A stretch of DNA of 64,000 bases from a phage, in the sequence record PZ445524.1; one strand, written 5' to 3'. The first letter of the stretch is position 1; every line of letters starts with the position of its first letter. Shown piece after piece: positions 1,823-26,545 of the stretch. Position numbers and translations under genes: made by a program. The notes below the pieces were generated by a model. That model saw only the letters and a program-made list of their open reading frames with translations. It was not told where the DNA came from and searched no databases.

Positions 1823-1827
1823 TAAAA

Positions 1828-3598: not shown

Positions 3599-3608
3599 AA
3601 TATTCTCC

Positions 3609-3764: not shown

Positions 3765-3771
3765 ATTTTCC

Positions 3772-3852
3772 TCACTGGCGTCCGAAGACGCCTTTGGTTT
3801 TAAGATTGTTACGATAGAACTGCATCACATGTTCGTTATGGAAATTACTCAT
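3772..3852 (-). CDS. stp: Stp peptide (26 aa), activator of the host PrrC anticodon nuclease system
   Basis: hand-translated [26 protein letters not shown], which I recognise as T4 Stp; lies between ac-like genes and ndd as in T4. Confidence 0.8.
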
Positions 3853-4307: not shown

Positions 4308-4370
4308 CATATTAATTTCCTCTAAATTATTTTCTACTCCAAGGCCGCATGAATACACACGGCCATTAAA

Positions 4371-4586
4371 TTAATCGTCGCAGTCGACGCTCAATTCCCA
4401 AAACTCTTCTACAGTATAAGTTTCAGTATCATTTTCAATACAGAAACGTTCATTACTGTTATTTGCTAAAGTAGCATTAACTGTCGGTTTCTCGCTAGTG
4501 CTCTTAAGAGGTGAAATACGAATTAACTGATCACCGTTATCTAAACAGAAAATTTCACCAACTTTTACATCTTTAAAACTTTTCAT
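4371..4586 (-). CDS. hypothetical protein (71 aa)
   Basis: ORF track. Confidence 0.55.
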   Translation of the reverse strand: MKSFKDVKVGEIFCLDNGDQLIRISPLKSTSEKPTVNATLANNSNERFCIENDTETYTVEEFWELSVDCDD

Positions 4587-4701
4587 AATTCACCTCAAGG
4601 AGTATAAAATCCAAATGCAGTTGTTGACCATCCCATCCAATACGGAAAATTTGCACCAATGTAAAACATGAGAATATAAAACCAACCGCTCAGCAAATTC
4701 A

Positions 4702-4920
4702 TCATTTTACACCATTCCAAATTGTTTCAACCACGGATTTTAAACCATTTTGATGAATATCAATTCCGACTACCGCCATCAAATAAATTCCAACTACAAC
4801 TGAACCTAAGGCAAAAATCAGCATGAAAATGAATAAAGCCGGAAAAATATTATCGAAAAACCATTCAATAAATGTAAAAGCACTGCGTTTACGCTTCATA
4901 TTTTCCTCACATAAATCCAA
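4702..4920 (-). CDS. small membrane protein (72 aa)
   Basis: ORF track; hydrophobic core. Confidence 0.5.
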   Translation of the reverse strand: MDLCEENMKRKRSAFTFIEWFFDNIFPALFIFMLIFALGSVVVGIYLMAVVGIDIHQNGLKSVVETIWNGVK

Positions 4921-5020
4921 AGTAAACGTTTAATACATCAATCATTAAAACGATTGGGAATATACTCAAAACTATTAGTATTATAACTACATTCCATATA
5001 GCTTTAATAATCTTTTTCAT
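4907..5020 (-). CDS. small membrane protein (37 aa)
   Basis: track ORF 4907..5116 runs through an early promoter; trimmed to ATG at 5020, which is preceded by GGAGG in the conserved leader. Confidence 0.45.
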   Translation of the reverse strand: MKKIIKAIWNVVIILIVLSIFPIVLMIDVLNVYFGFM

Positions 5021-5048
5021 TTTCTGTTCCTCCGTAGTTGATAGGGTA

Positions 5049-5078
5049 ATAGTACCACGGAAGAACAGTCTTGTAAAC
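5049..5078 (-). promoter_or_regulatory. early promoter with conserved leader
   Basis: GTTTAC-N18-TACTAT on minus strand, leader ...CAACTACGGAGGAACAGAAA-ATG. Confidence 0.55.
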
Positions 5079-5262
5079 AACTTTTTAAAAATATTCGTAA
5101 TAAATGTGAATACCAACTACTACCGCTGAAACCTGTGCAACCCACCACGCACAAGCAATAAGTACAGAATTCAAAATTTTCATAATAACCTCATCACAAA
5201 AGTAAATGTTAAACAAATTAATGGAATACTAATTAACCAAACAAAACACCACCATAATGAAC

Positions 5263-5535
5263 TCATAGTTCAATCTCAGCGATTTTCATTTCATTACTAT
5301 TAATAGCCGCTTTAAGACTATCTGAAAGAATTACATTCCAATGGTCATTCATATGACCACTAACTAAGCGTGTAATTTCTTCAGGAGTTGAAAAATAAGG
5401 CTGATCAGACTCCCAATGCGATAGTCCCAAGCGAGTATAAATCATACCTTCATCATCGCTAGAATATTCAACTGACACAAACTCATCAGTTATTTTATGT
5501 TTAGCGTAATAAAATTTAAATTTCATTTTACTCAA
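5263..5535 (-). CDS. hypothetical protein (90 aa)
   Basis: ORF track. Confidence 0.55.
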   Translation of the reverse strand: MSKMKFKFYYAKHKITDEFVSVEYSSDDEGMIYTRLGLSHWESDQPYFSTPEEITRLVSGHMNDHWNVILSDSLKAAINSNEMKIAEIEL

Positions 5536-5738
5536 TAATCCGCTAAAAGATCAACGATTGCATCACGAAGACACTTATTCGCAATACGTTTAAGAGCAAT
5601 TTCAGTTTCTGGAGCATTTTGAATAATCATTGAATTCAATTCAGCCTCAGCAAACTGAAGTTCTTTAACTAATTCAGCTTTATATTTTCCTTGCCCTTTC
5701 TTAGCTTTTGCTCGTTTTAATTCAGCTGTAGTAAACAT
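5532..5738 (-). CDS. hypothetical protein (68 aa)
   Basis: track ORF starts at TTG inside leader; trimmed to first ATG (MFTTAELKR) after GGAG. Confidence 0.55.
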   Translation of the reverse strand: MFTTAELKRAKAKKGQGKYKAELVKELQFAEAELNSMIIQNAPETEIALKRIANKCLRDAIVDLLADY

Positions 5739-5772
5739 TTTATTCTCCAAATCCGTATCAGTTGATAGTTGT

Positions 5773-5802
5773 ATATTACCACAGTCCTTGTGGTATGTAA
5801 AC
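5773..5802 (-). promoter_or_regulatory. early promoter with conserved leader
   Basis: GTTTAC-N18-TAATAT then ACAACTATCAACTGATACGGATTTGGAG-ATG. Confidence 0.55.
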
Positions 5803-5820
5803 CGTTTTGGGAAAAAATTT

Positions 5821-6378
5821 TTAAATGGAGAGATACCATCCGTTGTAGTTGCTTTTTCTTACAACCTTACGAAGGTCTTCTCTATCACCGATGAATTTCG
5901 GAGTGTACTGGATGACACCTGGGTGAATTTCTTTAGTGTTGAATATAATTATACAGTCAGCGACTTGGTGATTCAGAATGGGCCCTAGATTTATTCCAGA
6001 ACCGTATGGATACTCTCCGCTGCATCCGGTTGTTACCGAAATCCAACGTGAGTCAGTTTGATGTGTCTTAACTTCTACACGAAGCCCACAGTATTTTGGA
6101 TGCGCCAATACATCCCATGCATATGTGTACGGATCATCGACATCTTCTTGACCTTTGTTAACATACCCGCTCAGCCAATCTGCTACAAAAAACTCTGCGT
6201 ACACAGCGATACGGCATCTTTCGATAACTTCTGCCTTATCCTGATTTGGGTTTTGTTTTAAAGAGTATCTTGCAGTATCAGCAATTTTGACCTTCATTTC
6301 ACTGGTCAAGTCACTGTTCGATAGGGTAAATGTCGGAATCTGAAATAGTCTCTGTAACCCAGGATTCGTTTTCTGCAT
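5821..6378 (-). CDS. denB: endonuclease IV (DenB), cytosine-DNA-specific ssDNA endonuclease
   Basis: 185 aa, the T4 DenB length; sits immediately downstream of rIIB as in T4; assignment positional. Confidence 0.7.
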   Translation of the reverse strand: MQKTNPGLQRLFQIPTFTLSNSDLTSEMKVKIADTARYSLKQNPNQDKAEVIERCRIAVYAEFFVADWLSGYVNKGQEDVDDPYTYAWDVLAHPKYCGLRVEVKTHQTDSRWISVTTGCSGEYPYGSGINLGPILNHQVADCIIIFNTKEIHPGVIQYTPKFIGDREDLRKVVRKSNYNGWYLSI

Positions 6379-6462
6379 TTAAACTTTCCTTTATGTCGGA
6401 ATCACCGATATTCATATAATAAATCATAATTTCTCTTAAAACAAAAGGGCCGAAGCCCTTAT

Positions 6463-6657
6463 TTATTTGAATTGTGCAATTCTTTTCTCTAGACATTCAG
6501 CATAAGATTTCATTGAGATGAACTGTGAAAGTAGCAGTTCTTGCTCAACTGCGTTAACTGTTAGAAACTTTGTGCTTTCTAAAAATTTACTCAGTGCATT
6601 AATTTTGAGCATTAATTGATCATATTCTTCTTTTACTCGTGCTTGATAACCTAACAT
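6463..6657 (-). CDS. hypothetical protein (64 aa)
   Basis: ORF track; flanked by two GGGC-UUCG-GCCC hairpins. Confidence 0.5.
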   Translation of the reverse strand: MLGYQARVKEEYDQLMLKINALSKFLESTKFLTVNAVEQELLLSQFISMKSYAECLEKRIAQFK

Positions 6658-6689
6658 AATTTTCCTTAATATGATAAGGGCCGAAGCCC

Positions 6690-7628
6690 TTATTTAAATT
6701 GTTCAGTAACGTCTTCAACTACTTCGTATTGGCAGGTACGCATTTTAGCATCGTTGTAATCAATCGGAATTGATACTACATCACGCGGATGTACTTTAAC
6801 TTTTACAACTCGGCTAGTTGAACTGCCAAAGTGACGAATATAAGATTTAGAACACACATGCAGACCACGAGAACAAGTTTGTGTATCATCGTCATTCACA
6901 CGAGTACGTGGCATTTTAACTACTTTACCCGGACTGTTATCAAAGGTGTTTGAGTGACAGTCAAAGTAATTGCTGCGAACTACTTTCCAAGCATAGAAGT
7001 AACCATCTTCTGTAATTTCAATATCGTTTGCTACCAAGAAATCAAAGAGTCGAGATACCGCTTTTTGGCTTGGGTTTTCTAGCAGATTTTCCAAGAACGG
7101 AAAATAAAATTCAAAGTTTTCGCCTTTTTCCATCGAGTCAAGAATACGATCAACCAAACCAGACCGCAATTCAATATTTTGATAGAACAAGCTTCCACCT
7201 TCAATTCGAACATCGCCGGAAATATATTTTTCAACAGCACGACGAACATTAATTTTTTGTGCCGCTTCTTCCAACTTATCCGCTACAAGCAGATTAAGAA
7301 TTTCCTGGAAGTTTGAATGAGTATTAGGAGTTGCGTTATAAGTTACACCGTCAACAGTAATTGAAATGAATTTTTTAGATGCATTCCAAATAATGTCAGA
7401 TTTAGCAACTGGAGCAATAACTGCATCGCTATTAACTTTAACTGTAATATCACCGCTAATAGTAACTTTAGGGTGTTTAGCTTCTTCAGCATTTTTCAAA
7501 ACACGACGGATTGTGTCAACCGATACACCTTGCCAATCAGCCAATTCCTGTTGGGTATAATTACCACTTGAATACAGCTTAACAATTTCAGCTTGTTCGT
7601 TTTTGGTCAGGCATTTAATATTGTACAT
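6690..7628 (-). CDS. rIIB: rIIB protein
   Basis: 312 aa, T4 rIIB length; directly downstream of 725-aa rIIA. Confidence 0.9.
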   Translation of the reverse strand: MYNIKCLTKNEQAEIVKLYSSGNYTQQELADWQGVSVDTIRRVLKNAEEAKHPKVTISGDITVKVNSDAVIAPVAKSDIIWNASKKFISITVDGVTYNATPNTHSNFQEILNLLVADKLEEAAQKINVRRAVEKYISGDVRIEGGSLFYQNIELRSGLVDRILDSMEKGENFEFYFPFLENLLENPSQKAVSRLFDFLVANDIEITEDGYFYAWKVVRSNYFDCHSNTFDNSPGKVVKMPRTRVNDDDTQTCSRGLHVCSKSYIRHFGSSTSRVVKVKVHPRDVVSIPIDYNDAKMRTCQYEVVEDVTEQFK

Positions 7629-7639
7629 AATTTTCCTTA

Positions 7640-9817
7640 TTAGGCCGCAAGGGCCTTCATAGTTTTAGCGATTTGGGAAACTTCATCATCACTTAAAGAG
7701 TTGCGATAACCGATGAAGTCGGAAACAATACGGAATTTCTTGGTAAACTCAGCAACCATTTTATCACTGTTTTTTGAAGCATTATTTGATAATACATCAA
7801 AAAGATTAGTTACTGTCCAGATGTCATGACCGATGGTATCTTTTCCACCATTAAAATATACACCCTGTAATGAACTAACCATATTAGCAAGTCGTGTATA
7901 TTCTTCAGAAACTTCATCTACACTGAAGTACTTCATCATAAAATCTAACTCAGGATACTTGATAATTTTATCAATATATCGTTTAGCTGAACTTGAATAA
8001 CCTACATACTTATCATAATCTACATCATCAAAAGCATCTACATATAAATCACGCAAAGCTTCAAAAATACATTGGCACTGACCGAGTTCTTTTACCTTTT
8101 TCTGTAAAAGCGGACGAATAACATAAAATTCATTAATGCCAATAAGATTAGCCATACGAATCAAAATATTCATAGATGGATGACAAAGAGATGTAGTACC
8201 ATCCATAGAGAAAATATCAGAACGATGCATATACGCTACATAACCAGTAATTTCATCTGCTTCTGATGTGAGCGTAAATAATTCCTCTTTTTCCCAGCGC
8301 CCATCTTTAATTTCAAACTTAAATGCTGTAGCAGCTTTAGGACGAGGAGCTTTACTTTTAACTACCTTTGGAATATAGCTTTTAACTAAAGCTTCAATTT
8401 CTGACAAATAATGAATGTTAACTTCATCACTTTCAAACATCGCCATAATATCAGGAAGTAAATCAATCTGCGATTCTACTTCTGGATTAATAAACAGAAG
8501 ACGCTCATTGTGATGAATATTCAAAGTGTTATTAAATTCACTATCATCTAACGCATGCGCTAATCCACGAACAATATTAACACGATTTTTAATATTATCA
8601 ATAACGATATTAATTTTTGTTGTATTAATACCAAACAGACGATAACTTGATGCAACGGCTGAAGTTTCATGACTTTGCTTAATGCGCTTCAGTCGAGGGT
8701 CAAGATTTACTTCATACACAACTCCTGCATTGCATAACTTACTGTCAGGTTCAAACATGCTCTGCATCTTTTTATATGACAGATTTTTAGTCGTGAATTT
8801 GACTGAATTACTAATCATATAATCTCGAGCAGAATACCCCATCTTCATCAATTCACGATATGTGTGACGAGGAGATGTAGATTCTTTAAATCGTTTTACA
8901 TCTTCATTAAATGCTTTCTCACTGAGTTCTTTAACTCGTTCAATAATATTTTTACGAGTACGATCATCCAGTGAAAGAGCCTCGCGTGATGGAGCAATAT
9001 CCAATGAACCCATTGGAAACTTAATGTAATTCACTTCATTGCGAATGCTTAGCCAGTTACGGTCTCTAATAACACCATCGATAGGATAAACAATACCGCC
9101 GTAGATAGCATATAATCCACCACGATCAGGCCAGTATCTTTCTGGATTTACGCCGTAATAATCATCGAAATCCGGAAAATAATCAATTTCGCGGTCAAGA
9201 CCATTAATGATAGCCAAATCTTTGAATGGTCGCATGATATAAGAAACTTCATAAGCAAAGTTTCTAAAGTCTTTTTCTTCAACTGGAACTACGATTTCAA
9301 TACCAGTTTTATCATCTGGACCCATTTCTTTTACGAATGTAGGTTTAATTTGTGGACCATCGCCATCCATGTAAGCTACATAACCACGAATTTCACCTTT
9401 ATGATACGAAGTAATACTAAATGTATCAGTATAACTAAATGGAGATTTAGAACCTAAACCAAATCCGCCAATGAAATCGTTAGATTCAGCCTTAGATGAA
9501 CTGAAGTATGAATTATACAAACCAGGAGAATTATCATCACCCTGAATATCAAAATCACTCATACCCGGACCAAAATCTCGACAAACAAATCGTGGGTCTA
9601 AACGTCCAGGAACTTGTATGATAAATTTTTCAGGATTTCCATTAAGTGCATGGGCATCAATCATGTTGGTAATCAATTCACGGACTACTGCGCGAATCTT
9701 GTTTGTATACAAATCAGATGATAGAATTTTAAATACTTTAGGAGATGCTGTGATGCTAAATGCTTTTGATTTAGAACCATTACCAAGAATTGTTTCTTTT
9801 TCAGTGGTGATAATCAT
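7640..9817 (-). CDS. rIIA: rIIA protein
   Basis: 725 aa, T4 rIIA length; GHKL-ATPase-like N-terminus; followed by rIIB. Confidence 0.9.
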
Positions 9818-9827
9818 AATTTCCTCA

Positions 9828-10031
9828 TTAATTCATATTACGCTTAATAACTTCAGCAACTTCTAGTAATTCATCTTTAGTTGCGGTGTCGGATTGAATT
9901 TTATCTCTAATATCCTTAAAGCGGTTTTTAAATTCTTCGGCTTCTCCCATATCGAAAAAGCGTTGAATGATTCTATATTCTCGATGAACTGCTTTATCAA
10001 AAAGTTCTAAATTTACTCTATATGATTTCAT
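9828..10031 (-). CDS. hypothetical protein (67 aa), rIIA.1-like
   Basis: ORF track; between gene 60 and rIIA. Confidence 0.55.
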
Positions 10032-10056
10032 TTCAATATCCTCATTTGCCCAATTA

Positions 10057-10086
10057 ATTATACCACATCCTTGTGGTAAAGTAAAC
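10057..10086 (-). promoter_or_regulatory. early promoter (GTTTAC-N18-TATAAT)
   Basis: minus strand GTTTACTTTACCACAAGGATGTGGTATAAT; -35 overlaps gene 60 stop. Confidence 0.55.
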
Positions 10087-10430
10087 TACTGGCTCATCCA
10101 TTCTTTACGAAGGTCAGCATTATCTCCCATGAGCATTTCAAAAAGCTCTTTCCAGTTCTCAGGAAGTTTAACAACATCATATACTGGATTTTGAATCATT
10201 TCACGATATTCAGATTTTTCCAAAGAGCCAAGTCCTTTAATATAACGGATGCTATGTTTAGGTAAAGCATCTTTAGCACTCTCATATTCAGCGACTGTAT
10301 AAAACCATTCTTGTTTTTTACCGACCTGAGCGATGATTACAGGAGTTTTGACAAAGCGAATTCTTCCTTGTTCAAACAGTTCTGGCCAATTACTAAAAAA
10401 TCCGAGCAAAGAAGGATAAATAGAACCTAA
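10086..10430 (-). CDS. 60: DNA topoisomerase II small subunit gp60, segment 2 (codons 47-160, after the bypass)
   Basis: frame resumes with UUA right after landing GGA: LGSIYPSLLGFFSNWPE...; track ORF 10086..10409 is this segment. Confidence 0.9.
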   Translation of the reverse strand, partial: LGSIYPSLLGFFSNWPELFEQGRIRFVKTPVIIAQVGKKQEWFYTVAEYESAKDALPKHSIRYIKGLGSLEKSEYREMIQNPVYDVVKLPENWKELFEMLMGDNADLRKEWMSQ

Positions 10431-10480
10431 TCCAATAATCTCTTAATTATGAGGTATTTCTATAGATAGCCCGAAGGCTA
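10431..10480 (-). other. 60: 50-nt untranslated coding gap of gene 60 (translational bypass element)
   Basis: take-off GGA 10483-10481, stop UAG 10480-10478, UAGCC-UUCG-GGCUA hairpin 10481-10466, landing GGA 10433-10431. Confidence 0.9.
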
Positions 10481-10618
10481 TCCATCGTGATCTGCGTCTG
10501 TCATAATAGCGACATTCGCATAGTTCATTGAAGAGGATTTAATAGAACGACGAACATTGTTCTGCAATTTATATTTTTTCATATCAACGCTAGAAGAATC
10601 AATTTTTACAAATTTCAT
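10481..10618 (-). CDS. 60: DNA topoisomerase II small subunit gp60, segment 1 (codons 1-46)
   Basis: MKFVKIDSSSVDMKKYKLQNNVRRSIKSSSMNYANVAIMTDADHDG then UAG; GyrB-C-terminal-like TDADxDG motif. Confidence 0.9.
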
Positions 10619-11417
10619 TATACACCTCATAGAACTTTTCATCAGGAATCCAACCGCGTTTAAATTCATTAAATGCTCGGCCGAATAATTTTGAATTCAC
10701 AGTTATATTATTAACTGATTTCCATTTAGCAACTCCCGTTCGTTTATAATGATCGGGGTCATATTTCGTGACGTACCATTCATATAAATTTGGTATTAAT
10801 TTTACAGCCTCTGGATTTGTCGCTGATTTATTATACCATGGTTTCGCTTTTTCAAGTTCAGCTGCTTTTGCAGTAGCAGCAACAGTATTTCCAATACCAA
10901 CTAATTTTTCAGCTTTAATGCGTGGATCATTAACATGAAGACGAAAAACTTCGCCTTTTTCATTTTTAAAGCATGTCATGCCTTTAATTCCAGGAAGCTT
11001 AACACCTTTATTAACACCGCACCATTCCTTTGGGTTAAATGATCCTTTAATTAATAAGGCGCATTTACCCGATTTAATACTTCTCATTAAAACTTTATCT
11101 TTCATAAAGTTTTTTGACCATTCAGATACTGCTCTTTGATGGTAAATTCTAGCAATTTCATATAATTTACTAGAACGTAAATATTTTTCAGTGTTTAACA
11201 TTCTATTCATCGCATATGCCATTTCACGATTACGATGAATTTTATATAGTAGAAAATGTGCTAAAAAGTGTTCACGAAAAGTCAGTTTCACCAAATTTTC
11301 TTTATCATCAGAACCTCCCATTGATCTTGGAAGGATATGATGAATTTCACCCTTAAATTTAGAAACGCGGGTTTTACCCCGCACTATTAAGTCATTATAG
11401 ATTTTTTCGTAATTCAC
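10599..11417 (-). CDS. mobA: HNH homing endonuclease MobA
   Basis: 272 aa; HNH motif EIHHILPRSMGGSDDKENLVKLTFREHFLAH; located between 39 and 60. Confidence 0.85.
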   Translation of the reverse strand: MNYEKIYNDLIVRGKTRVSKFKGEIHHILPRSMGGSDDKENLVKLTFREHFLAHFLLYKIHRNREMAYAMNRMLNTEKYLRSSKLYEIARIYHQRAVSEWSKNFMKDKVLMRSIKSGKCALLIKGSFNPKEWCGVNKGVKLPGIKGMTCFKNEKGEVFRLHVNDPRIKAEKLVGIGNTVAATAKAAELEKAKPWYNKSATNPEAVKLIPNLYEWYVTKYDPDHYKRTGVAKWKSVNNITVNSKLFGRAFNEFKRGWIPDEKFYEVYNEICKN

Positions 11418-12948
11418 CTACTGTTATCCATTTACCATTAATCTGTACTTCATCATTTTCATTTACGATAATTGTATCGCCATTTAGTTCGAAAGTAAAC
11501 CACTCGCCATCTTCTTTTTCTTCAAACGCCTTTTCACCAAGAACTAGACCAGTGATTGCGCAAATATCAAATAGTTCTTTGTTTTTAAGCATATCGGCAT
11601 ATGACATACCCCAGCTATTAAGAACTTTACCGCGCAATGGATAACCACCATGAAGTTCTTTATCGCGAACATCAATAAGATATCCGATAGCAGAATCACC
11701 CTCAGTCAAGAAAAGAGTAGTGTCAGCATCTTTACCGCAAAGATTCGCTTTGATATGTTTATGAACCTTAGCTTTAGAAGCCTTTTTAGCTGCTTTAGTT
11801 TCTGCTGCTTTTTCTGCCGCCAATTTACGAGCCAAAGCAGCTTCAATAATCGGCATCAGAATTGCTTCATTATTTAGAATAGCGCGTGAAATCTTTTTAG
11901 CATCAAGCTGAATATGACTACGAATTTCACCAAATGGAGAAGTCAAACGCTCTTTAGTTTGAGAATCAAATCGCATGTTTTTCATATCACGAACAAACAT
12001 AACGATAGTCAAACATTCTTTAACACGTGCTTTAGTTACATCAATTTTGAACTTACGTTTGATTTGTGGAATAAGGTCTTCACAAATATCATCCATAACA
12101 CAGTCAATGTGATGGCCACCATTCTTAGTGTGGATGTTATTCACATAAGTTAATTGACGAAATCCATCCGGTGAACGACCAACCGCAATAGAACAATTTT
12201 CTTGTTCTTGAACAATAGCATGTTCATCATACTGCCGTGCATATTTCTTAAAATTGCCCTGAACCTTTTTACCATTAAAGGTAAATTGGATATCAGGATA
12301 AACAACAGCAAGTGTCTGGAGACGATCTAGTGTAATGTCAAGATAAACTTGGGACAGCTCATTAGTTTCAAATGACATAAAATCAGGAATGAAAGTAACA
12401 CGAGTTCCTTTCCATTTTCCAGGAATATCTTCCCATGATTTATTTTCCATGCCATTTGAACAACGAACTACAATATTATTTTGACCATCGCCAGTTTCAC
12501 CAACAAACATCACAGAAAAAATGTTTGTCAAACTAGAACCAACACCATTCATACCGCCAGTGACGCGTTCTTTATCATCACCAAAGTTACCACCTGCTTT
12601 TGGAATAGTCCATGCAGCAACAGGACCAGGAATTTCTTCACCGGTAGGTGTTTTAACCATCGCTTGTGGAATACCACGACCGTTATCTTCAACTGTTACT
12701 TGATTGTTTTTAATAGTAACATTAATTTTATTTGCGAATTTAAACTTAGTACGAATACCTTCATCTACTGAGTTATCGATAATTTCATCAATAAGCTTAA
12801 CAAGACCAGGTACATACTGAACACTTTCCCATTTACCAAACAGAAAGCGCTCATGCATTTCATTAGCAGAAGAGCCAATATACATGCCGCTACGCTTTTT
12901 GATATGTTCAATATCGCTCAGAATTTTAATTTCATTCTTAATCATCAC
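11395..12948 (-). CDS. 39: DNA topoisomerase II large subunit (GyrB-like ATPase)
   Basis: 517 aa; MIKNEIKILSDIEHIKKRSGMYIGS and GHKL ATPase motifs. Confidence 0.95.
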   Translation of the reverse strand: MMIKNEIKILSDIEHIKKRSGMYIGSSANEMHERFLFGKWESVQYVPGLVKLIDEIIDNSVDEGIRTKFKFANKINVTIKNNQVTVEDNGRGIPQAMVKTPTGEEIPGPVAAWTIPKAGGNFGDDKERVTGGMNGVGSSLTNIFSVMFVGETGDGQNNIVVRCSNGMENKSWEDIPGKWKGTRVTFIPDFMSFETNELSQVYLDITLDRLQTLAVVYPDIQFTFNGKKVQGNFKKYARQYDEHAIVQEQENCSIAVGRSPDGFRQLTYVNNIHTKNGGHHIDCVMDDICEDLIPQIKRKFKIDVTKARVKECLTIVMFVRDMKNMRFDSQTKERLTSPFGEIRSHIQLDAKKISRAILNNEAILMPIIEAALARKLAAEKAAETKAAKKASKAKVHKHIKANLCGKDADTTLFLTEGDSAIGYLIDVRDKELHGGYPLRGKVLNSWGMSYADMLKNKELFDICAITGLVLGEKAFEEKEDGEWFTFELNGDTIIVNENDEVQINGKWITVGELRKNL

Positions 12949-13014
12949 TTATCCTCGTTTGGTTTCGGGAATATTATACTCCAATAATCATAAAGCTAAA
13001 GGCCCGAAGGCCTT

Positions 13015-13284
13015 TTATTTAAAACGAATAGTCGAATCCTTGAAGAATAGTCCAGAACATACTGTTCCTTCTACTTTCTGCCCAGTAGGTCCAATAGCAC
13101 GAAATCCAGTATGCTGGAAATCATTTTCAGAGCAACCGAACCAATTATATCCAGTGATTTCAATATTAGTAAAACCACTTGAAGACAAAACTTTGGTTGC
13201 ATTATCAGCATCAGTACATCCTATTAAAGACACTGCTAATACTAATGCTGCAATAGAACGATTAATATATTTCATAATTTTCAC
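13015..13284 (-). CDS. putative lipoprotein (89 aa)
   Basis: N-terminal signal peptide with lipobox LIGC. Confidence 0.6.
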   Translation of the reverse strand: MKIMKYINRSIAALVLAVSLIGCTDADNATKVLSSSGFTNIEITGYNWFGCSENDFQHTGFRAIGPTGQKVEGTVCSGLFFKDSTIRFK

Positions 13285-13652
13285 TTAAATTTAATGGCTT
13301 GAAGAAGACTAATAACTCTCAAGCGGCTTCTTTCATCTTTAACTGTAAAAGAAAGAGGGTCACCAGATTTCATAGTGATAGTGCATCCAAAATCAAAATT
13401 TTCGGGAACTTCTTCGAAGAAGTCAAATTCTTCAGCATAAATTAGAACATTACTCTGCATACTGTGAAGAATTTTTCCATTATTTCCAGACGCTGTACTA
13501 ATCATCGTAACATTATGACCTTTCATATCTTCAACGATAAATTCGCTTGTAGATATTACAGCATTAATAGAACCATTCCTATAAATAGCAGACATTAGAT
13601 ATTTCTTTTCTTCGCCTTCGCGAATACGATATTTCTTACCGATTTTAAACAT
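13281..13652 (-). CDS. hypothetical protein (123 aa)
   Basis: track ORF starts at GTG 13658; first ATG at 13652. Confidence 0.6.
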   Translation of the reverse strand: MFKIGKKYRIREGEEKKYLMSAIYRNGSINAVISTSEFIVEDMKGHNVTMISTASGNNGKILHSMQSNVLIYAEEFDFFEEVPENFDFGCTITMKSGDPLSFTVKDERSRLRVISLLQAIKFK

Positions 13653-13654
13653 AA

Positions 13655-13831
13655 TCACCCTTTAAGTAAGTCGTAAAAACCACCATTCACATGCTTAGGA
13701 GCAGAAGGCCGACGAGTAGACAAACGATGACATTTAGGGCAAACATCATTTTCTCGTTCAGAAATCTTTTTAATTTTTTCATATTCATGCCCGCAGTCTT
13801 CAGATTGGCATTTATAATCATACATTGGCAT
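13655..13831 (-). CDS. small zinc-ribbon protein (58 aa)
   Basis: hand-translated MPMYDYKCQSEDCGHEYEKIKKISERENDVCPKCHRLSTRRPSAPKHVNGGFYDLLKG; two CxxC pairs; below track cut-off. Confidence 0.55.
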   Translation of the reverse strand: MPMYDYKCQSEDCGHEYEKIKKISERENDVCPKCHRLSTRRPSAPKHVNGGFYDLLKG

Positions 13832-13833
13832 AA

Positions 13834-14253
13834 TTATTCCTTAAAATGAGCTTTCAGCATCTGATACAAAGACCATGCCTGTTCATTATTTTCAATAGTA
13901 ACTTTCATTACCGGGAATTCTGTGAAATCTTCTATTTGTTCTTGCTCTTCCTGCTCTTGTTCTTCAGCAGCCTGATATGGATTTTCAACTTCGTCAAAGA
14001 ACCCAGCTTCGTTAGTAGAGAGCCAGATAAAGTTTTCGTCAAGGATATCACCGCCGGCACAACGTTTGAGTACACCTATGGATGTCATAATTTTAGTAGG
14101 ACGCCCAAGATAATCAGCATCTAAAATTTTAAAAGGCTCCATACCTAAACGTCGTGCATAGATTCCGTTATCAGTATGGTCTTTAATAAAATTTTCTTGA
14201 GCTTGTTTATTTTTAAATTGATACCATTTATTAACTTCAAATTTAATAGCCAT
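13834..14253 (-). CDS. hypothetical acidic protein (139 aa)
   Basis: ORF track; [10 protein letters not shown] acidic stretch. Confidence 0.6.
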
Positions 14254-14468
14254 TAATAAATTTCCTTCCAGTAAGTTGTGCCGTCTTCAGTAATTTCACG
14301 AAATACACCGTAAATTGGCTGTTTATCACCGACTTTCTCATACACATAAACAGAAGTCAAGTGAGTAAACTTGCTAGTATGTTCCTTTTGAACTACTACC
14401 AAATTTGGATCAAATAATACATCTTCAAATTCGTCATTAGTGCAATTCTGAACAATTTTACGTTTCAT
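14253..14468 (-). CDS. hypothetical protein (71 aa)
   Basis: ORF track; 1-nt overlap with upstream gene. Confidence 0.55.
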
Positions 14469-14481
14469 TATAATTTCCTCA

Positions 14482-14751
14482 TTAATTGAACATTGGAGCG
14501 ATACGTTTCAGAAGAGTAGCAGCACCTTTGGCGAATTTTACATCATGAAAAACAGTTTCTTCTTCCGTTACAACACGAACTTTAATGTTTTCACAATCCC
14601 AATTTTTACGAACAATCTTCAAAAGCTGCAGTAAATCTTTACATTCAGCAATATCGATAACACATCCACGAGAATCTTCCATTATCGCACGATAACCGTA
14701 AGCCATACCATAATCGTTGAAAGATTGCTCGATGATAATTAAGTTTTCCAT
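14482..14751 (-). CDS. hypothetical protein (89 aa)
   Basis: track ORF starts at TTG in leader; trimmed to ATG (MENLIIIEQ) after GGAG. Confidence 0.55.
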   Translation of the reverse strand: MENLIIIEQSFNDYGMAYGYRAIMEDSRGCVIDIAECKDLLQLLKIVRKNWDCENIKVRVVTEEETVFHDVKFAKGAATLLKRIAPMFN

Positions 14752-14775
14752 TTTATTCTCCAAGTTGTTTTCTGT

Positions 14776-14818
14776 ATCAGTAGTTGATATTGATATAGTA
14801 CCATAATCAACTACTGAT
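14776..14818. repeat. 13-bp perfect inverted repeat flanking a promoter -10 element
   Basis: atcagtagttgat (14776-14788) and atcaactactgat (14806-14818) are exact reverse complements, 17 bp apart. Confidence 0.8.
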
Positions 14819-14848
14819 GTATATAGTTTTATGAAAAAATTTTAAACT

Positions 14849-15346
14849 TTATGCACAGCGAGCTTTGCTATAGTGTTTAATCCAACTTTCAGGAATGACT
14901 TTGTATGTTCCTAAAAATACCGCGTTGTACAGCTTAACACCATCTTCTACCCACTGATCGGTAATGTATGCGCACATAGCACGAGTACGGTGTTTTTGAA
15001 CAACCCCTTCCTCATCTTCAGTAAATTCGAATTCATAAGGAGCAACGAACTTGATAGCTTGACCGAGTTTCCACTTAAAGTCTACACCTACATGCGAAGT
15101 ATCAATCGTTTCAATTCCTTTAGCAGGAACAGCTTTCAAAAACGCAGATTCAAGAAATTTCGCGCGAACATAACCAAACTGAGGTTTAGACTTTCCATCT
15201 TTAGGAATGATACGCACTTTTACTTCAGAATCTTCATCTTTAACGCCGTGTTTAAGCTGAATGCTTACAATTTCGACCAATTTTCCTGCTGCTTTAGAAC
15301 GGGATTTATCAGATACACGAGCAATTTCACCAATATTAATAATCAT
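14849..15346 (-). CDS. hypothetical protein (165 aa), MotB-region paralog A
   Basis: ORF track; C-terminal block CAYITDQWVEDGVKLYNAVFLG resembles that of 15423..15965. Confidence 0.6.
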   Translation of the reverse strand: MIINIGEIARVSDKSRSKAAGKLVEIVSIQLKHGVKDEDSEVKVRIIPKDGKSKPQFGYVRAKFLESAFLKAVPAKGIETIDTSHVGVDFKWKLGQAIKFVAPYEFEFTEDEEGVVQKHRTRAMCAYITDQWVEDGVKLYNAVFLGTYKVIPESWIKHYSKARCA

Positions 15347-15422
15347 AGTTATCTCTCACTTGTTAAAAAGATTTTATACTCCGCGGGACCATTATACTCT
15401 GGTCCCAAGAGTTTGTAAACTA

Positions 15423-15965
15423 TTAATTTAAAATAGCTACCACCGCACTACGAGGTACTACGCTAAAATCACCTGCATGAACAACGTTCAGAAGTTCAAC
15501 ACCATCTTCAATCCATTGGTCTGTTACCCAACCACAGACCGAAATAAATGGGGTCTTAATAGCTACTGCATGAGTCAAAAGGTCAGTAGGATCAACTTCT
15601 TTGAAGAGGATAAGCTCTGCTTCAAAGACTATAGTTTTAATTACTTCATCATTATCTAAGCGATGTGCTCGAATCACGTAAGCTTTATTCTTATCATACC
15701 AGTTACTTTTTGAAAAGCTTTTAACCACAAACTCGCCTTCACCAAAAGCATTAGTCAATGCTTTATAACCCAAATTTAGTTCAGTAGTTTTAATTTCAGT
15801 TTCAACCAGTTTGTAGGTTTTGCCAATTTCGATGGTCCGAGCAGTCATAAATGTTTCCTTAATTTCTAATGGTTTAACAAGAGTGCCGTACATGCTTGCT
15901 ATATCCATATCAAACGGTTTATCTACAGGATTCGGTGTGTATTCAGGATTATAATTAAATTTCAT
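15423..15965 (-). CDS. hypothetical protein (180 aa), MotB-region paralog B
   Basis: ORF track; C-terminal block CGWVTDQWIEDGVELLNVVHAG. Confidence 0.6.
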   Translation of the reverse strand: MKFNYNPEYTPNPVDKPFDMDIASMYGTLVKPLEIKETFMTARTIEIGKTYKLVETEIKTTELNLGYKALTNAFGEGEFVVKSFSKSNWYDKNKAYVIRAHRLDNDEVIKTIVFEAELILFKEVDPTDLLTHAVAIKTPFISVCGWVTDQWIEDGVELLNVVHAGDFSVVPRSAVVAILN

Positions 15966-15967
15966 AA

Positions 15968-16468
15968 TTATCTCATTTCAATAAAATCTACGAGTTCAGC
16001 ATGCGATTTGCGGAACATTACTTGATGCCCACCAATGATAACTTCATCTTCAGGAACTTCGTATACAGCGAGATAAAATCCTTTAGAAGATAATTCTTCC
16101 CGCTCTTCTCGTGTGAACCATCTCATCATATCATACTCACTAGCGAAAGCAAAATGATAAAGAGCTATAAACCATCCTGGAATATGATATTCTACTCCAA
16201 CATAATCTTTCTTGAACTTAGTATTAATTACTATATTAGCGTTTTTAACTAATAGTTTATCTTCGTGTGGTAAAGGAATTCTTTTATTATTATCGCTATG
16301 ATGCATAAAATTAGGTCTGTCATAACCTACGTGTAATAGCCACTCTTCGCTCCATGAATCTATTATACTCCTGTACGGCGTTATTTGAACACAAAGATTT
16401 CGACGTATTGTTATAGCGTCTTCATAATCAAGAATACTAAACGATGATTCAACACGATAAATTTTCAT
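15968..16468 (-). CDS. hypothetical protein (166 aa)
   Basis: ORF track; early promoter GTTTAC-N18-TATTAT upstream at about 16506-16535. Confidence 0.6.
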   Translation of the reverse strand: MKIYRVESSFSILDYEDAITIRRNLCVQITPYRSIIDSWSEEWLLHVGYDRPNFMHHSDNNKRIPLPHEDKLLVKNANIVINTKFKKDYVGVEYHIPGWFIALYHFAFASEYDMMRWFTREEREELSSKGFYLAVYEVPEDEVIIGGHQVMFRKSHAELVDFIEMR

Positions 16469-16532
16469 TTTTATTATCCTCAGTAGCTATGGTGTTATAA
16501 TACCATAACTAACCGAGGAAGTAAACAACTTT

Positions 16533-17216
16533 TTATCGTTTTGTTGGAAGAGATAGAGGATCGCATTCTTCCTCTGATGGAGCGTCTTCAAGACCCATAG
16601 CATACCGCAAAGCATACTTCATCATCAGGATGTCTTTCGCACAGTCATGAATAGAATCATGTGCAACAAATCCATCTAAAGTTCCCTTTGGAAGGGGGCA
16701 TGTGGTCATATCACGAACAAGGAGAAGTGCTTCAATTCTGGTACGAATATCACGCTGATTCCAGAATTTACATGGTTCTAACTTAAATGTGTCAAGTTCA
16801 TTCTCAGAAACACCATTAAGACGTTGAATATCACGAATGAGATCGACTAAAATTGGAAAATCAAACGACATTCCACGGCACCAGCCTTGAGATTTCCAAG
16901 GATCGATATTATGCGCATTGATGTAATCATTAAATTTTGCAATACCATCGATGGTGCTTACATCTTCATCTGATGGTGCAATATTTTTTCGAGCTTCAGG
17001 AGACTGATTTTTCCACCATTCGATAGTGCTTTTAGTAAAAAGACGATGTCCTTTTTGGCTTTTTAAATCAAATTTGATTTTAATGCCGCGTGAAACTAAT
17101 TCATCAAATGTTTCAACTACTTCTGGGTTAGGGTCAAAAGCAATTACAGCTAAATCAATAACAGCTGCTTTTTCACCACTTCCCATTGTTTCAAAATCTA
17201 TAATAAAATCAAACAT
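16533..17216 (-). CDS. dexA: exonuclease A (DEDD-family 3'-5' exonuclease)
   Basis: 227 aa, T4 DexA length; N-terminal DFET motif; position upstream of dda region. Confidence 0.85.
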   Translation of the reverse strand: MFDFIIDFETMGSGEKAAVIDLAVIAFDPNPEVVETFDELVSRGIKIKFDLKSQKGHRLFTKSTIEWWKNQSPEARKNIAPSDEDVSTIDGIAKFNDYINAHNIDPWKSQGWCRGMSFDFPILVDLIRDIQRLNGVSENELDTFKLEPCKFWNQRDIRTRIEALLLVRDMTTCPLPKGTLDGFVAHDSIHDCAKDILMMKYALRYAMGLEDAPSEEECDPLSLPTKR

Positions 17217-17491
17217 TAAATTTTCCTTGCTAAATCGCGAATTTGACCTACAGTATAGTCTTGAATATAAACTTTATTAATAGGTTCATCAATAAATTTT
17301 GCCATAGATTCAATATCTTTTTGCATCTCTTCAAGACTGTATATTATCTTTAAAGCTTTTTCGCGAATAGTAATATTTTCAGGACCAGAATTTTTCTCAA
17401 TGACAGCTTTAACATTTGTCATAAGAGATTTAAACTGACACCAACTTAATTCAATCATTAATAACCGCCTTATAAAGATGGCTAATTTCAC
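17216..17491 (-). CDS. hypothetical protein (91 aa)
   Basis: ORF track. Confidence 0.55.
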   Translation of the reverse strand: MKLAIFIRRLLMIELSWCQFKSLMTNVKAVIEKNSGPENITIREKALKIIYSLEEMQKDIESMAKFIDEPINKVYIQDYTVGQIRDLARKI

Positions 17492-17711
17492 CTAAAATGT
17501 AATCACTGATTGTAACAGTTTTTACTTCACCACAAAAGAATTCTAACGCAATCAAATCTCGTTCAATTTCTTCCAATTGAAGCATTAACTTGCCTGATTC
17601 AGTTTTCACATTTTTGCGATTTTTGCTATAAGCTATTTCATAAATTTCGCTTACTTTATCTTGAAGAAGATAAAACTGATCTTTAGTTATTTCCACGAAT
17701 AGCTTCCTCAA
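17451..17711 (-). CDS. hypothetical protein (86 aa)
   Basis: ORF track. Confidence 0.55.
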   Translation of the reverse strand: MRKLFVEITKDQFYLLQDKVSEIYEIAYSKNRKNVKTESGKLMLQLEEIERDLIALEFFCGEVKTVTISDYILGEISHLYKAVIND

Positions 17712-17717
17712 ATTTAA

Positions 17718-19037
17718 TCATACATAAAATACATCATAACGACCACGGGTAACACCAACATAAAGAAGTTGTTGGGCCAATTCAGCATCTGCATAATGAA
17801 TACAAGGCGTATAAATGAAAGCACGGTCTACAGACATACCCTGAGCTTTATGGAATGTTGATGCAGGAAGTGCTTTCACTTTACTGAACTGTGATTTAGC
17901 ATCCCAAAAATCACTCCACGGAGCTTTTCCGCCTTTGTTCCAATTTTTATAAGTTTCTGCCGTTTTACCTAAAAATAAATTAAACTTATATAGCTCTTCA
18001 TCAGATGAAATTATTTTAATCTTTTCACGATAATATTCATCATCGCCGTAAGTTTCTACTGTTAAATCCCAATGACGAATTAAGTATTCTCCAGAAACAC
18101 CACGAGCTTTAACAAAGGTTGATGTATACTCTGCTTCTATAATACGAACTAATTGTCCGTTATTAAAAATAATTTCTGACACAGGCTTTCCATCAATTTT
18201 ATATGTTTTAATTAATGGTTCCTGCATTACAATAATTTCACCGACAATAAAATCTTTATCAGTTTCAAAAATCTTTTTACGAATAATGCTATTTAACTTG
18301 TCAACAGATTTATTCGTAAATGCCATTACACGATTTTCAAACAAATCATCTAGTGATTTGACGATTGAAAAATAATTTACCATAAAATCGCGTAAAGCGG
18401 TATCACCAGTAAATCCACGTACTCCATGCCCGTCAACAACTTTATCATAAATCCACTTACCGTTACGAACGTCAGTAGCTACATCAATAATAGGAGCATT
18501 ACTGCGTTTAACTTCAGTGAGTTCACACTGATAAAAATCTTTATGTGTAAAGAATGGACTGATATAAGCAGTATTTTCTCCTGGGTCAACAGGTCTAATT
18601 TGCTTATTATCACCTATTCCAATTATGGTACACCAAGGTGGAATAGTTGAAAGCAGAATTTTAAATAGCTTTCTATCATACATTGACACTTCGTCGCAGA
18701 TTAATACCCTGCATTTAGCTAAATCTGGTACTTCCTTCTGCTCGAAGAGGACATTTTCTTCATATGTTACCGGGTTAATTTTAAGAATGCTATGAATAGT
18801 ACTTGCTTCTTTCCCTGATAGTTTTGAAAGAATCTTTTTAGCTGCATGAGTAGGAGCTGCTAAAATAATACCAGTTTCACCCGTAGATATTAAAGCTTCA
18901 ATGATGAACTTAGTAAGAGTAGTCTTACCAGTACCAGCAGGTCCATTAATAGTTACATGATGTTTCTTTTCTTTAATAGCCTTCATAACAATGTTAAAGG
19001 CATTTTTTTGACCTTCGGTCAAATCATCAAATGTCAT
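17718..19037 (-). CDS. dda: Dda DNA helicase (SF1B)
   Basis: 439 aa; Walker A GPAGTGKTT; T4 Dda length. Confidence 0.95.
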   Translation of the reverse strand: MTFDDLTEGQKNAFNIVMKAIKEKKHHVTINGPAGTGKTTLTKFIIEALISTGETGIILAAPTHAAKKILSKLSGKEASTIHSILKINPVTYEENVLFEQKEVPDLAKCRVLICDEVSMYDRKLFKILLSTIPPWCTIIGIGDNKQIRPVDPGENTAYISPFFTHKDFYQCELTEVKRSNAPIIDVATDVRNGKWIYDKVVDGHGVRGFTGDTALRDFMVNYFSIVKSLDDLFENRVMAFTNKSVDKLNSIIRKKIFETDKDFIVGEIIVMQEPLIKTYKIDGKPVSEIIFNNGQLVRIIEAEYTSTFVKARGVSGEYLIRHWDLTVETYGDDEYYREKIKIISSDEELYKFNLFLGKTAETYKNWNKGGKAPWSDFWDAKSQFSKVKALPASTFHKAQGMSVDRAFIYTPCIHYADAELAQQLLYVGVTRGRYDVFYV

Positions 19038-19345
19038 CGTAAATTCCCTGCAATTGGTATACTAACAATACGCCCAGTATCTAAAATTCGCCGATATAAT
19101 CTTTGTGTGTCTACATCAGGCTTAACATGTTTAACTTCTATTTTATTAAACCAAAACTTGCGTGGAGTCTCAACTAGTCTTGGAATTCCCATACCTAAAG
19201 CTAGTTTATATTGCTCTTTAAGAGTAGTAAATACTTTATCAGCAATCTCCCTTTCAAAAAATACAGCAGGACGATGTTCATCAAGTGGAACTGGCGCCGT
19301 AAATCCGTCTTTGTCTCGGTAAACTATCGCATATACATAAACCAT
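19034..19345 (-). CDS. hypothetical protein (103 aa)
   Basis: ORF track. Confidence 0.55.
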   Translation of the reverse strand: MVYVYAIVYRDKDGFTAPVPLDEHRPAVFFEREIADKVFTTLKEQYKLALGMGIPRLVETPRKFWFNKIEVKHVKPDVDTQRLYRRILDTGRIVSIPIAGNLR

Positions 19346-19346
19346 A

Positions 19347-26543: not shown

Positions 26544-26545
26544 TT

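Follow-up and report, generated by a model that had tools for sequence, protein, structure and literature searches.

How does the gene for a topoisomerase subunit come to lie in two pieces, with an endonuclease gene between them and a stretch within one of the pieces that ribosomes would have to skip? We address this question for a stretch of phage DNA of 64,000 nucleotides (sequence record PZ445524.1), which we call the window. The locus is 98.1% identical to its T4 counterpart, and the source phage is a T4-like Tequatrovirus. At a genome G+C of 35%, the long open reading frames (ORFs) and their strong homology mean that the 39, mobA and 60 ORFs are not due to chance. All three are encoded on the minus strand (Table 1).

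We are highly confident that the locus is a MobA-bypass mobile cassette of T4-type phages, inserted into the TOPRIM domain of the topoisomerase II large-subunit gene. A sequence-only reading of this DNA had already proposed the insertion of a homing endonuclease as the cause of the fragmentation, with the bypass element travelling along. The observation is confirmed, and the homing-insertion interpretation is supported by the comparisons below. Such an arrangement has been published before, with experimental support (Manning & Atkins 2022, bioRxiv 10.1101/2022.08.31.505936, and Bonocora et al. 2011 as summarised there), so that its novelty is low.

Table 1. Positions of the split topoisomerase gene, the mobile element and its parts in the window.
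Feature	Position	Strand	Size	Basis or remark
Whole mobile element	10422..11530	-	1,106-1,109 nt	Homology breaks; 3-nt ambiguity at left edge
Gene 39, topoisomerase II large subunit, N-terminal piece	11395..12945	-	516 aa	ORF, Pfam, PHROG 543
gp39 C-terminal extension, aa 474-516	11398..11526	-	43 aa	Element-encoded; BLASTP alignment to T2 ends at 473
mobA, free-standing HNH homing endonuclease gene	10599..11417	-	272 aa	ORF, PHROG 655
Gene 60, first segment	10481..10618	-	codons 1-46	ATG at 10618; identical to T4T in protein and nucleotide sequence
Take-off stem-loop GGAUAGCC-UUCG-GGCUAUCU	10464..10483	-		Spans take-off codon and UAG
Coding gap ('hop')	10431..10480	-	50 nt	50/50 nt as in T4T; annotated there as translational bypass region
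Gene 60, second segment	10086..10430	-	codons 47-160 and stop	TOPRIM C-terminal associated domain, GyrB C-terminus
Gene 52, topoisomerase II medium (GyrA-like) subunit	1974..3302	-	442 aa	ORF; T4T-aligned stretch

One subunit in two genes

Gene 39 had been read as a GyrB-like ATPase and gene 60 as a GyrB C-terminal piece. Pfam domains and collinearity with T2 bear out both assignments. In the ORF list gene 39 encodes 517 aa and has a GTG start (11395..12948). One codon 3' of this GTG lies an ATG at 12945, which agrees with the T4 and T4T annotation and has a GAGGA Shine-Dalgarno sequence upstream at a spacing of 6 nt. The product matches PHROG 543 (E = 1.4e-229) and the Pfam domains HATPase_c and DNA_gyraseB. 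It contains the GHKL ATPase, the transducer and the first half of TOPRIM (E415-G-D-S-A). Residues 1-473 are identical to T2 gp39 at 472/473 positions (BLASTP). The 43-aa extension that follows is missing from uninterrupted gp39 and kept in all cassette-bearing genomes examined. It is the counterpart of the 'CTE' of Manning & Atkins.

The TOPRIM domain is divided between the two proteins, with the EGDSA motif in gp39 and DADHDG in gp60. Gene 60 starts at an ATG preceded by a Shine-Dalgarno sequence of its own. Its first segment starts with an element-encoded N-terminal extension that contains the nascent-peptide signal (KYKLQNNVRRSIKSSS), and continues into a recoded homologous region that ends D41-A-D43-H-D45-G46, the TOPRIM DxD motif. 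Residues 27-46 of gp60 align with residues 472-491 of T2 gp39. The DNA of this region differs more than the protein: 39/57 nucleotides (68%) are identical to the uninterrupted gene, and 16/19 amino acids are kept.

The 50-nt translational bypass of phage T4 gene 60 was reportedly described by Huang et al. in 1988. Here, the take-off codon GGA (codon 46) lies at 10483..10481 and is directly followed by a UAG stop at 10480..10478. Besides this stop, the gap contains the take-off stem-loop, a Shine-Dalgarno-like GAG (10442..10440) and the landing GGA (10433..10431). The GAG triplet precedes the landing codon by 6 nt, and take-off and landing codons are matched. When folded as RNA, the take-off hairpin reaches -9.9 kcal/mol (7-bp core, z = -3.37), and only 1/200 shuffled sequences is as stable. 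An Rfam scan of the whole window at gathering thresholds returns no group I intron and no other RNA family, so the hop is not covered by any curated family.

Reading of gene 60 resumes out of frame at 10430, and the stop codon ends at 10086. The first 9 nt of the second segment (10430..10422) still belong to the recoded stretch of the element. Pfam identifies TOPRIM_C and DNA_gyraseB_C in the C-terminal part of gp60. Aligned to T2 gp39 472-605, gp60 is identical at 128/134 positions. Taken together, the domains of gp39 and gp60 are collinear with the 605-aa T2 gp39, in the order GHKL ATPase, transducer, TOPRIM, C-terminal tail. The whole predicted gp60 (160 aa) and the gap are identical to those of T4. 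Because gene 60 codons 1-46 and the gap are 100% identical to T4T, we infer that ribosomes bypass the gap to give the 160-aa gp60.

Two details of the sequence-only reading need adjustment. Its placement of the bypass 'immediately at the 5' end of gene 60' is loose, as the gap begins 138 nt, or 46 codons, into the gene. Furthermore, its range of 10431-12948 covers gene 39 and mobA but leaves out the 3' two-thirds of gene 60 (10086..10430): 10431 is the last base of the gap, and thus most of gene 60 falls outside.

Extent and diversity of the element

We compared the locus with two sets of genomes. The cassette-free set consists of seven relatives with an uninterrupted 605-aa gene 39 (T2 and six others). 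The cassette-bearing set consists of eleven genomes, this phage and ten others.

Homology to the seven cassette-free phages ends at 11531 and restarts at 10421, with sharp breaks on both sides. The upstream break falls after K472/A473 of gp39 (window 11531-11527), within the TOPRIM domain. Between the breaks, the element stands in for 64-67 nt of uninterrupted gene 39. The sequence-only reading had expected breakpoints against intact relatives at the mobA boundaries. Breakpoints are indeed present, but they fall outside the ORF, 113 nt before the mobA start and 177 nt past its stop. A single 1.1-kb element encloses both mobA and the 50-nt gap, in line with the idea that the bypass element travels in the cassette. 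The mobile unit is thus larger than mobA.

Position and length of the element are the same in the ten other cassette-bearing genomes. Its identity to these carriers is 98.6-100%, that of the flanks 94.5-97.8%. Among all eleven carriers, diversity is 0.82% in the element, 3.1% in the gene 39 flank and 4.4% in the gene 60 flank, that is, about four to five times lower in the element. The contrast is strongest with phage e11/2: the element is identical at 1109/1109 positions, against differences at 47 of 1751 flank sites (Fisher p = 1e-10). In their flanks, carriers are as distant from one another as from cassette-free genomes. The low diversity of the element points to a recent spread.

Outside the element, polymorphism restarts 9-17 nt past its left edge and 13 nt past its right edge. 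A search next to the element for a longer co-conversion tract of low diversity found none. Co-conversion tracts of free-standing T4 homing endonucleases are usually hundreds of bases long. Recent simple homing might leave such a tract, and later recombination could have erased one. That the co-conversion tracts accompanying MobA homing in nature measure no more than about 10-20 nt seems rather unlikely to us. If tracts are this short, they might stem from MobA making a nick instead of a double-strand break. Alternatively, frequent later recombination erased longer ones.

An active endonuclease gene, a relic or a spliced insert?

The 272-aa HNH ORF that the sequence-only reading had placed across the ends of both genes is found as described. 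Its first 23 nt (11417..11395) are shared with the 3' end of gene 39, whose stop codon they include, and its last 20 nt (10618..10599) with the 5' end of gene 60; the reading frame differs from both. The start is a GTG at 11417, directly after an in-frame TAG. MobA matches PHROG 655 'homing endonuclease' (E = 2.5e-57). The Pfam HNH model (PF01844) scores 20.1 bits (E = 7e-4), below its curated cut-off of 21.4, and we therefore rely on PHROGs, on a motif alignment with solved HNH structures and on the T4 Mob paralogues. The motif EIHHILPRSMGGSDDKENLVKLTFREH aligns with the HNH of a group II intron maturase and of Cas8f-HNH. A sequence search of the PDB yields motif-length matches only and no full-length structural relative. 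H26, H27, N41, H50 and H54 are invariant between MobA, T4 MobB, T4 MobC and the second HNH protein of the window. The catalytic residues of a beta-beta-alpha-metal motif, His, Asn and His, are present in MobA as H26/H27, N41 and H50.

Could the cassette nevertheless be an immobile relic, in which the split and the hop are kept for the sake of the topoisomerase while MobA no longer homes? We consider this improbable. Decay occurs elsewhere: in the T4 reference record mobA is annotated as a pseudogene, broken up into mobA and 60.1, and the endonuclease has been lost or has decayed in several lineages that keep the bypass (Manning & Atkins, bioRxiv 10.1101/2022.08.31.505936). Moreover, the mobA GTG here has no obvious Shine-Dalgarno sequence before it; translation of mobA may be coupled to termination on gene 39. 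A scan of 9800..13300 for sigma-70 promoters and terminators gives 9 promoter-like sites where chance alone would give 14, and hence no usable evidence on the transcription of mobA or gene 60. Yet mobA is an uninterrupted ORF in this phage and in 10/10 other carriers examined, with H26/H27/N41/H50 conserved. It differs from T4T MobA at one of 272 residues. Among the eleven genomes, 11 variable mobA codons are synonymous and 4 non-synonymous. If about 75% of random changes are non-synonymous, so few non-synonymous codons have a P of about 1e-4, and mobA appears to be under purifying selection. The sequence-only reading would have given way had the ORF been a pseudogene, which it is not. The lower diversity of the element relative to its flanks also speaks against a relic, as it points to recent spread.

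Even less probable is an ancestral, vertically inherited split, from which uninterrupted gene 39 arose by repeated loss or fusion. Loss does occur, as the 'hit and run' re-fusion in an Aeromonas clade illustrates (Manning & Atkins, bioRxiv 10.1101/2022.08.31.505936). However, the 64-67 nt of the uninterrupted genes are only about 68% identical to the copy in the element. Since the displaced 57 nt have a 68%-identical, protein-conserving copy in the element, simple deletion cannot interconvert the two alleles. Neither do the uninterrupted genes have any trace of the CTE or NTE codons, and a precise deletion would leave something other than what we see. In addition, the cassette occurs in only 42/552 matching phage records, scattered over flank haplotypes and near-identical among carriers.

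That RNA or protein splicing removes the interruption, as an intron or intein, is hardly credible: many T4 homing endonucleases do live in group I introns, and the 50-nt gap has been speculated to be a degenerate intron derivative (PMC5009743), but gene 39 has its own stop, gene 60 its own translation start, the literature describes three separate topoisomerase subunits (PMC11461880), the Rfam scan at gathering thresholds detects no group I intron in the window, and the Pfam scan finds no Hint/intein domain. On this evidence we reject the intron or intein, the ancestral-split and the dead-relic readings.

Proposed mechanism and related elements

The preferred reading, a mobile MobA-bypass cassette, implies the following sequence of events. 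In a mixed infection, MobA would nick a conserved target in a gene 39 that lacks the cassette; the nick would fall about 20 nt upstream of the place occupied by the gap. Recombinational repair off the cassette-bearing genome would then copy the entire element into the target. The 50-nt insert is proposed to break up the MobA recognition site, so that the carrier genome would be immune. For T4-type phages, experiments have shown that MobA is active, that the element passes to T2 when both phages infect together and that the bypass insert is protective (Bonocora et al. 2011, as cited in bioRxiv 10.1101/2022.08.31.505936). Near-identity to T4-type sequences suggests cleavage, immunity and bypassing in this genome as well. 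Low diversity of the element, its patchy occurrence and the purifying selection on mobA lend indirect support to cleavage, transfer and immunity.

The element would also offset the cost to the host gene. It carries the 43-aa tail that closes the upstream fragment, mobA as a free-standing HNH endonuclease gene, and the 50-nt coding gap. To gene 60 it gives a new start with a Shine-Dalgarno sequence and an N-terminal extension, which includes a recoded copy of about 20 displaced codons. The two fragments, gp39 and gp60, would come together with gp52 to form a working enzyme. According to PMC11461880, the tails contributed by the element make up a pendant on TOPRIM, and activity is seen with the split and with the fused enzyme alike. 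A second offset would come from the hop itself: ribosomes on gene 60 may leave at GGA-46, ahead of the UAG and the hairpin, slide 50 nt and land on the matched GGA, giving full-length gp60.

The cassette fits what has been published for MobA-bypass elements. These insert into TOPRIM at about aa 466-473, are 1097-1106 nt long, replace 55-75 nt and carry a homologous copy with 67-81% DNA identity. Their MobA has 269-279 aa and is out of frame, with a CTE of about 44 aa and an NTE of 44-46 aa (Manning & Atkins 2022, bioRxiv 10.1101/2022.08.31.505936). In their bypass cassettes the take-off codon sits in a stem-loop and is followed by a stop or hungry codon, the landing codon is matched and lies 6 nt after a Shine-Dalgarno-like GAG, and reading resumes out of frame. 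The values here are 272 aa for MobA, 43 aa for the CTE and 46 aa for the NTE. Insertion site, length and replacement, overlaps of the HNH ORF and the bypass cassette all agree with the published sequence criteria.

Compared to the T4 39-mobA-60 locus ('clade 1' of Manning & Atkins 2022), the insertion site, length, gene order, overlaps and CTE/NTE are the same. The DNA of the element is 99.6% identical and the flanks are 2-3% diverged. Unlike T4, the rest of the window is without segA, mobB, mobC, dam and the nrdD intron.

A topoisomerase gene split likewise, with a MobA homologue between the halves, occurs in Acinetobacter phage vB_AbaM_DLP2, which belongs to a distant clade. DLP2 shares the UAG stop after the take-off codon and the GCCUUCGGGC hairpin top. 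However, its take-off codon appears to be GAU and its gap appears to be shorter, and its MobA is only 48% identical, matches in two pieces and has a shortened annotation. In Aeromonas phage Aeh1, MobE in nrdA is also a free-standing HNH Mob-family endonuclease that splits a host gene, and it provides terminal tails through which the fragments can reassemble. In contrast to the locus described here, Aeh1 has a different target gene and no translational bypass cassette. Endonucleases carried by introns and inteins (for example I-TevII in T4 nrdD) are likewise selfish genes in conserved T-even genes that spread by cleavage and repair. In those systems splicing of RNA or protein restores the host gene, whereas here the gene stays split and a ribosomal hop skips 50 nt.

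Among cases of programmed translational recoding, the gene 60 hop is the classic extreme. Being linked to a homing endonuclease, it illustrates that selfish DNA may come with a device to limit the harm to its host gene. The window adds another natural and intact copy, with an open mobA on a non-T4 backbone, and this copy has the population-genetic signature expected for horizontal spread. Its value lies in confirmation, and no new question is opened. For annotation, gene 60 should be joined across the gap and mobA should start at the GTG.

The sequence-only reading also called the fragmented gene essential. T4 genes 39, 52 and 60 are DNA-delay genes, and 'essential' overstates the role of the topoisomerase. 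The product of gene 52 is the partner of gp39 and gp60. Gene 52 itself lies outside the cassette and is context only; its counterpart stretch in T4T is annotated at 163890..165218.

Structure of the split topoisomerase gene

The topoisomerase large-subunit gene of this phage is split by an element that holds both an HNH endonuclease gene, mobA, and the 50-nt coding gap of gene 60. The 39-mobA-60 arrangement is already known. All testable defining features of the published MobA-bypass element are found here (site, size, ORF sizes, overlaps, recoded homologous region and bypass signals). Hence, the interpretation in the sequence-only reading, which is also the established explanation, is supported.

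All three genes lie on the minus strand (see table). A 272-aa HNH ORF had been placed at 10599..11417, separating and overlapping genes 39 and 60. These coordinates hold: mobA shares 23 nt with gene 39 and 20 nt with gene 60, in a frame that differs from both. The range proposed for the whole feature (10431-12948) ends on the final base of the gap, so that 345 nt of gene 60 fall outside it. The bypass, said to sit at the 5' end of gene 60, is indeed in that gene, 138 nt in and after codon 46 rather than at the very start. For gene 39, the ORF finder returned 517 aa, starting from a GTG one codon upstream of the ATG. We also correct the word "essential" for the topoisomerase gene, given the DNA-delay phenotype of T4 topoisomerase mutants.

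Positions of features in the window (unless another locus is named)
Feature	Position	Strand	Details
Gene 39	12945..11395	-	516 aa; ATG at 12945 after a GAGGA Shine-Dalgarno sequence; the annotated T4 start
mobA	11417..10599	-	272 aa; GTG start directly after an in-frame TAG
Gene 60	10618..10086	-	46 codons to GGA (10483..10481), then UAG; gap 10480..10431; resumes at 10430
mobD	60999..61778		intact, 259 aa
Second Mob-type HNH ORF	23902..24753	-	283 aa; PHROG 655, E = 1.8e-33; HH-N-H motif conserved
Mob-like gene of phage F27	3001..3798 of F27 locus L024		after the intact topoisomerase gene
Short junctions replacing T4T mobile elements	31136..31304, 44876..44899, ~49374..49394, 50671..50672		T4T alignment
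Stretches without T4T counterpart at the same position	13280..13649, 14544..14743, 3612..3756, 5296..5735, 46453..46712, 52330..52711		T4T alignment

The joined gp60 (160 aa) is identical to that of T4T, MobA differs from its T4T counterpart by a single residue (T169A), and gp39 by three. HATPase_c and DNA_gyraseB domains are found in gp39, TOPRIM_C and DNA_gyraseB_C in the second part of gp60 (Pfam). Together the two proteins are collinear with the uninterrupted 605-aa gp39 of T2: residues 1-473 of gp39 match T2 1-473 at 472 of 473 positions, and gp60 27-160 matches T2 472-605 at 128 of 134. The split falls within the TOPRIM domain. Read from the sequence, the EGDSA motif (E415) is in gp39 and the DxD motif (D41-A-D43-H-D45) is in gp60, directly before the gap; both motifs have established roles in TOPRIM domains.

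Boundaries and probable spread of the element

We compared the region with seven genomes that carry an intact gene 39 (T2, 232Ecol030PP, NBG2, RB27, T6, ECML-134 and P8). Nucleotide homology to all seven ends at 11531 and restarts at 10421. The left edge is ambiguous by 3 nt (11530..11527), and therefore the element measures 1,106-1,109 nt; it stands in place of 64-67 nt of the uninterrupted gene. On the right, the element ends 9 nt beyond the landing codon, as it does in clade 1 of Manning & Atkins (bioRxiv 10.1101/2022.08.31.505936). Homology does break around mobA, but outside the ORF: 113 nt before its start codon on one side and 177 nt after its stop codon on the other.

In the coding direction (5' to 3'), the element carries 43 codons that extend the C-terminus of gp39, then mobA. 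Next come the Shine-Dalgarno sequence, ATG and unique first 26 aa of gene 60, the displaced codons in recoded form (39/57 nt and 16/19 aa identical), the 50-nt gap and three further recoded codons. A single pair of breakpoints encloses mobA and the gap, and therefore the hop shares the foreign DNA block of mobA. The cassette reading turns on this: the bypass lies in the same element as the endonuclease, as had been proposed, although the mobile unit is larger than mobA.

The displaced stretch varies in only 6 of 67 columns among the seven cassette-free genomes. In the more distant FL34 (intact gene 39), for which boundary work covered the displaced stretch alone, it is nearly unchanged, though gene 39 is just 78% identical elsewhere. 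Such conservation fits use as an endonuclease target. Compared with the window, FL34 is 78% identical in the N-terminal part of gene 39 and 98% in the 3' part (the gene 60 equivalent), which suggests that a cassette-free genome has recombined, with the junction in or close to the MobA target region.

The cassette is present in 42 of the 552 phage records that match the region; the remainder have an uninterrupted gene. In ten other carriers, the element has the same position and length and is 98.6-100% identical to ours. Averaged over pairs of the 11 carriers, diversity amounts to 0.82% in the element, against 3.1% in the neighbouring stretch of gene 39 and 4.4% in the gene 60 segment. Phage e11/2 matches the window at 1,109/1,109 element positions while the flanks differ at 47/1,751 (Fisher p = 1e-10). 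BF15, a carrier, and the non-carrier 232Ecol030PP each differ from the window at 30 positions of the gene 39 flank. Polymorphism restarts 9-17 nt from the left edge and 13 nt from the right edge; the one point of slight novelty is how closely the diversity trough keeps to the element. Repeated loss from an ancestrally split gene does not fit: uninterrupted genes have the displaced codons in another version and hold no remnant of the extensions. The sharp breaks against seven intact relatives and an element less diverged than its flanks argue for a homing-endonuclease insertion, and the diversity pattern is consistent with spread among diverged backbones more recently than these backbones split.

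According to Bonocora et al. (2011), as related in Manning & Atkins (bioRxiv 10.1101/2022.08.31.505936), the nick made by MobA in cassette-free gene 39 falls roughly midway along the homologous region, ~20 nt upstream of the gap site, and the cassette is efficiently copied into T2 in mixed infections. By the same account, carrier DNA is shielded from nicking by the 50-nt insert, not by silent substitutions alone.

Bypass signals

The gap sequence UAGCCUUCGGGCUAUCUAUAGAAAUACCUCAUAAUUAAGAGAUUAUUGGA is identical to that of T4. The take-off codon and the UAG lie within a UUCG-capped hairpin (-9.9 kcal/mol, z = -3.4), a GAG triplet is found 6 nt upstream of the landing GGA, and gene 60 encodes the nascent-peptide segment KYKLQNNVRRSIKSSS. 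A predicted upstream 5' stem-loop is not significant alone (z = -1.5). In T4, as reported in the literature (bioRxiv 10.1101/2022.08.31.505936), these signals drive roughly 50% efficient bypassing. From the identity to T4 we infer that bypassing would be about 50% efficient here.

Phages pSe_SNUABM_01 and HY01 carry a variant gap (…GGCUAUCCAUUGAAA…) at the equivalents of window 10464 and 10461, which leaves the take-off stem weaker at its base and the gap without its second UAG. They also have V11I and L18S in the N-terminal extension of gp60. These changes are natural variants of the bypass signals.

MobA, its relatives and the genomic background

MobA matches PHROG 655 "homing endonuclease" (E = 2.5e-57) and scores just under the Pfam HNH threshold (20.1 against 21.4 bits). 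Its segment EIHHILPRSMGGSDDKENLVKLTFREH can be aligned to HNH motifs from a group II intron maturase and from Cas8f-HNH proteins. When MobA is aligned with T4 MobB, T4 MobC and the second HNH gene of the window, H26, H27, N41, H50 and H54 are the same in all. The gene is not a disrupted pseudogene: it is open in 11/11 carriers with HNH residues intact, and 11 of 15 variable codons are synonymous. This pattern is consistent with purifying selection on the endonuclease. In the T4 reference AF158101.6 (L003 3117..3913), the element contains an additional 11 nt, and mobA is annotated as a pseudogene with a separate ORF 60.1. T4T and several other T4-labelled records annotate a homing endonuclease at this site (an intact 819-nt mobA in T4T). 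The disruption may come from errors in early sequencing or be a genuine lesion of the laboratory strain.

MobA has full-length homologues in 73 phage records; its N-terminal HNH module by itself matches 785, which are Mob-family genes adjoining nrdA, primase and other genes. Acinetobacter phage DLP2 similarly has a 48%-identical MobA between two topoisomerase fragments; its downstream fragment reads ...GAU UAG CCUUCGGGCUAAUC..., with the hairpin top as in the window after what appears to be a different take-off codon. In Mosigvirus F27, by contrast, a related endonuclease, with 62% identity in its first 70 residues, directly follows an intact 606-aa topoisomerase gene rather than lying inside it. 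CJY920, a carrier, has ~890 extra bp directly after gene 60 (L004 4406..5293), and the 3' part of its gene 60 is 86% identical to ours. By position, the extra DNA may be the same kind of downstream insertion of an endonuclease gene as in F27. The second HNH ORF of the window lies between soc (23631..23867) and gene 56 (24728..25339), the exact T4 site of the unrelated GIY-YIG gene segF. Thus different endonuclease families use one site.

The window belongs to a T4-like Tequatrovirus, alignable to T4T 161922..168920 and 1..59403. For 10000..13000 the top database match is BF15 (98.5%), with T4 at 98.1%. Relative to T4T, the phage keeps mobA and mobD and lacks segA, mobB, mobC and the nrdD group I intron with I-TevII, with short junctions in their place; an Rfam scan at the gathering threshold found no intron in the window. 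Only 40 nt (25267..25306) replace the T4T dam segment (16792..17710; DNA adenine methyltransferase), and dam therefore appears to be absent at the T4T-equivalent position. One stretch without T4T counterpart, 13280..13649, encodes a 125-aa ORF (13281..13658; PHROG 622, unknown function) that weakly resembles goF-type families; in T2, T6 and RB27, the annotation at the equivalent place is a hypothetical protein. Another, 14544..14743, falls inside a 93-aa ORF (14482..14763; PHROG 3720, unknown function).
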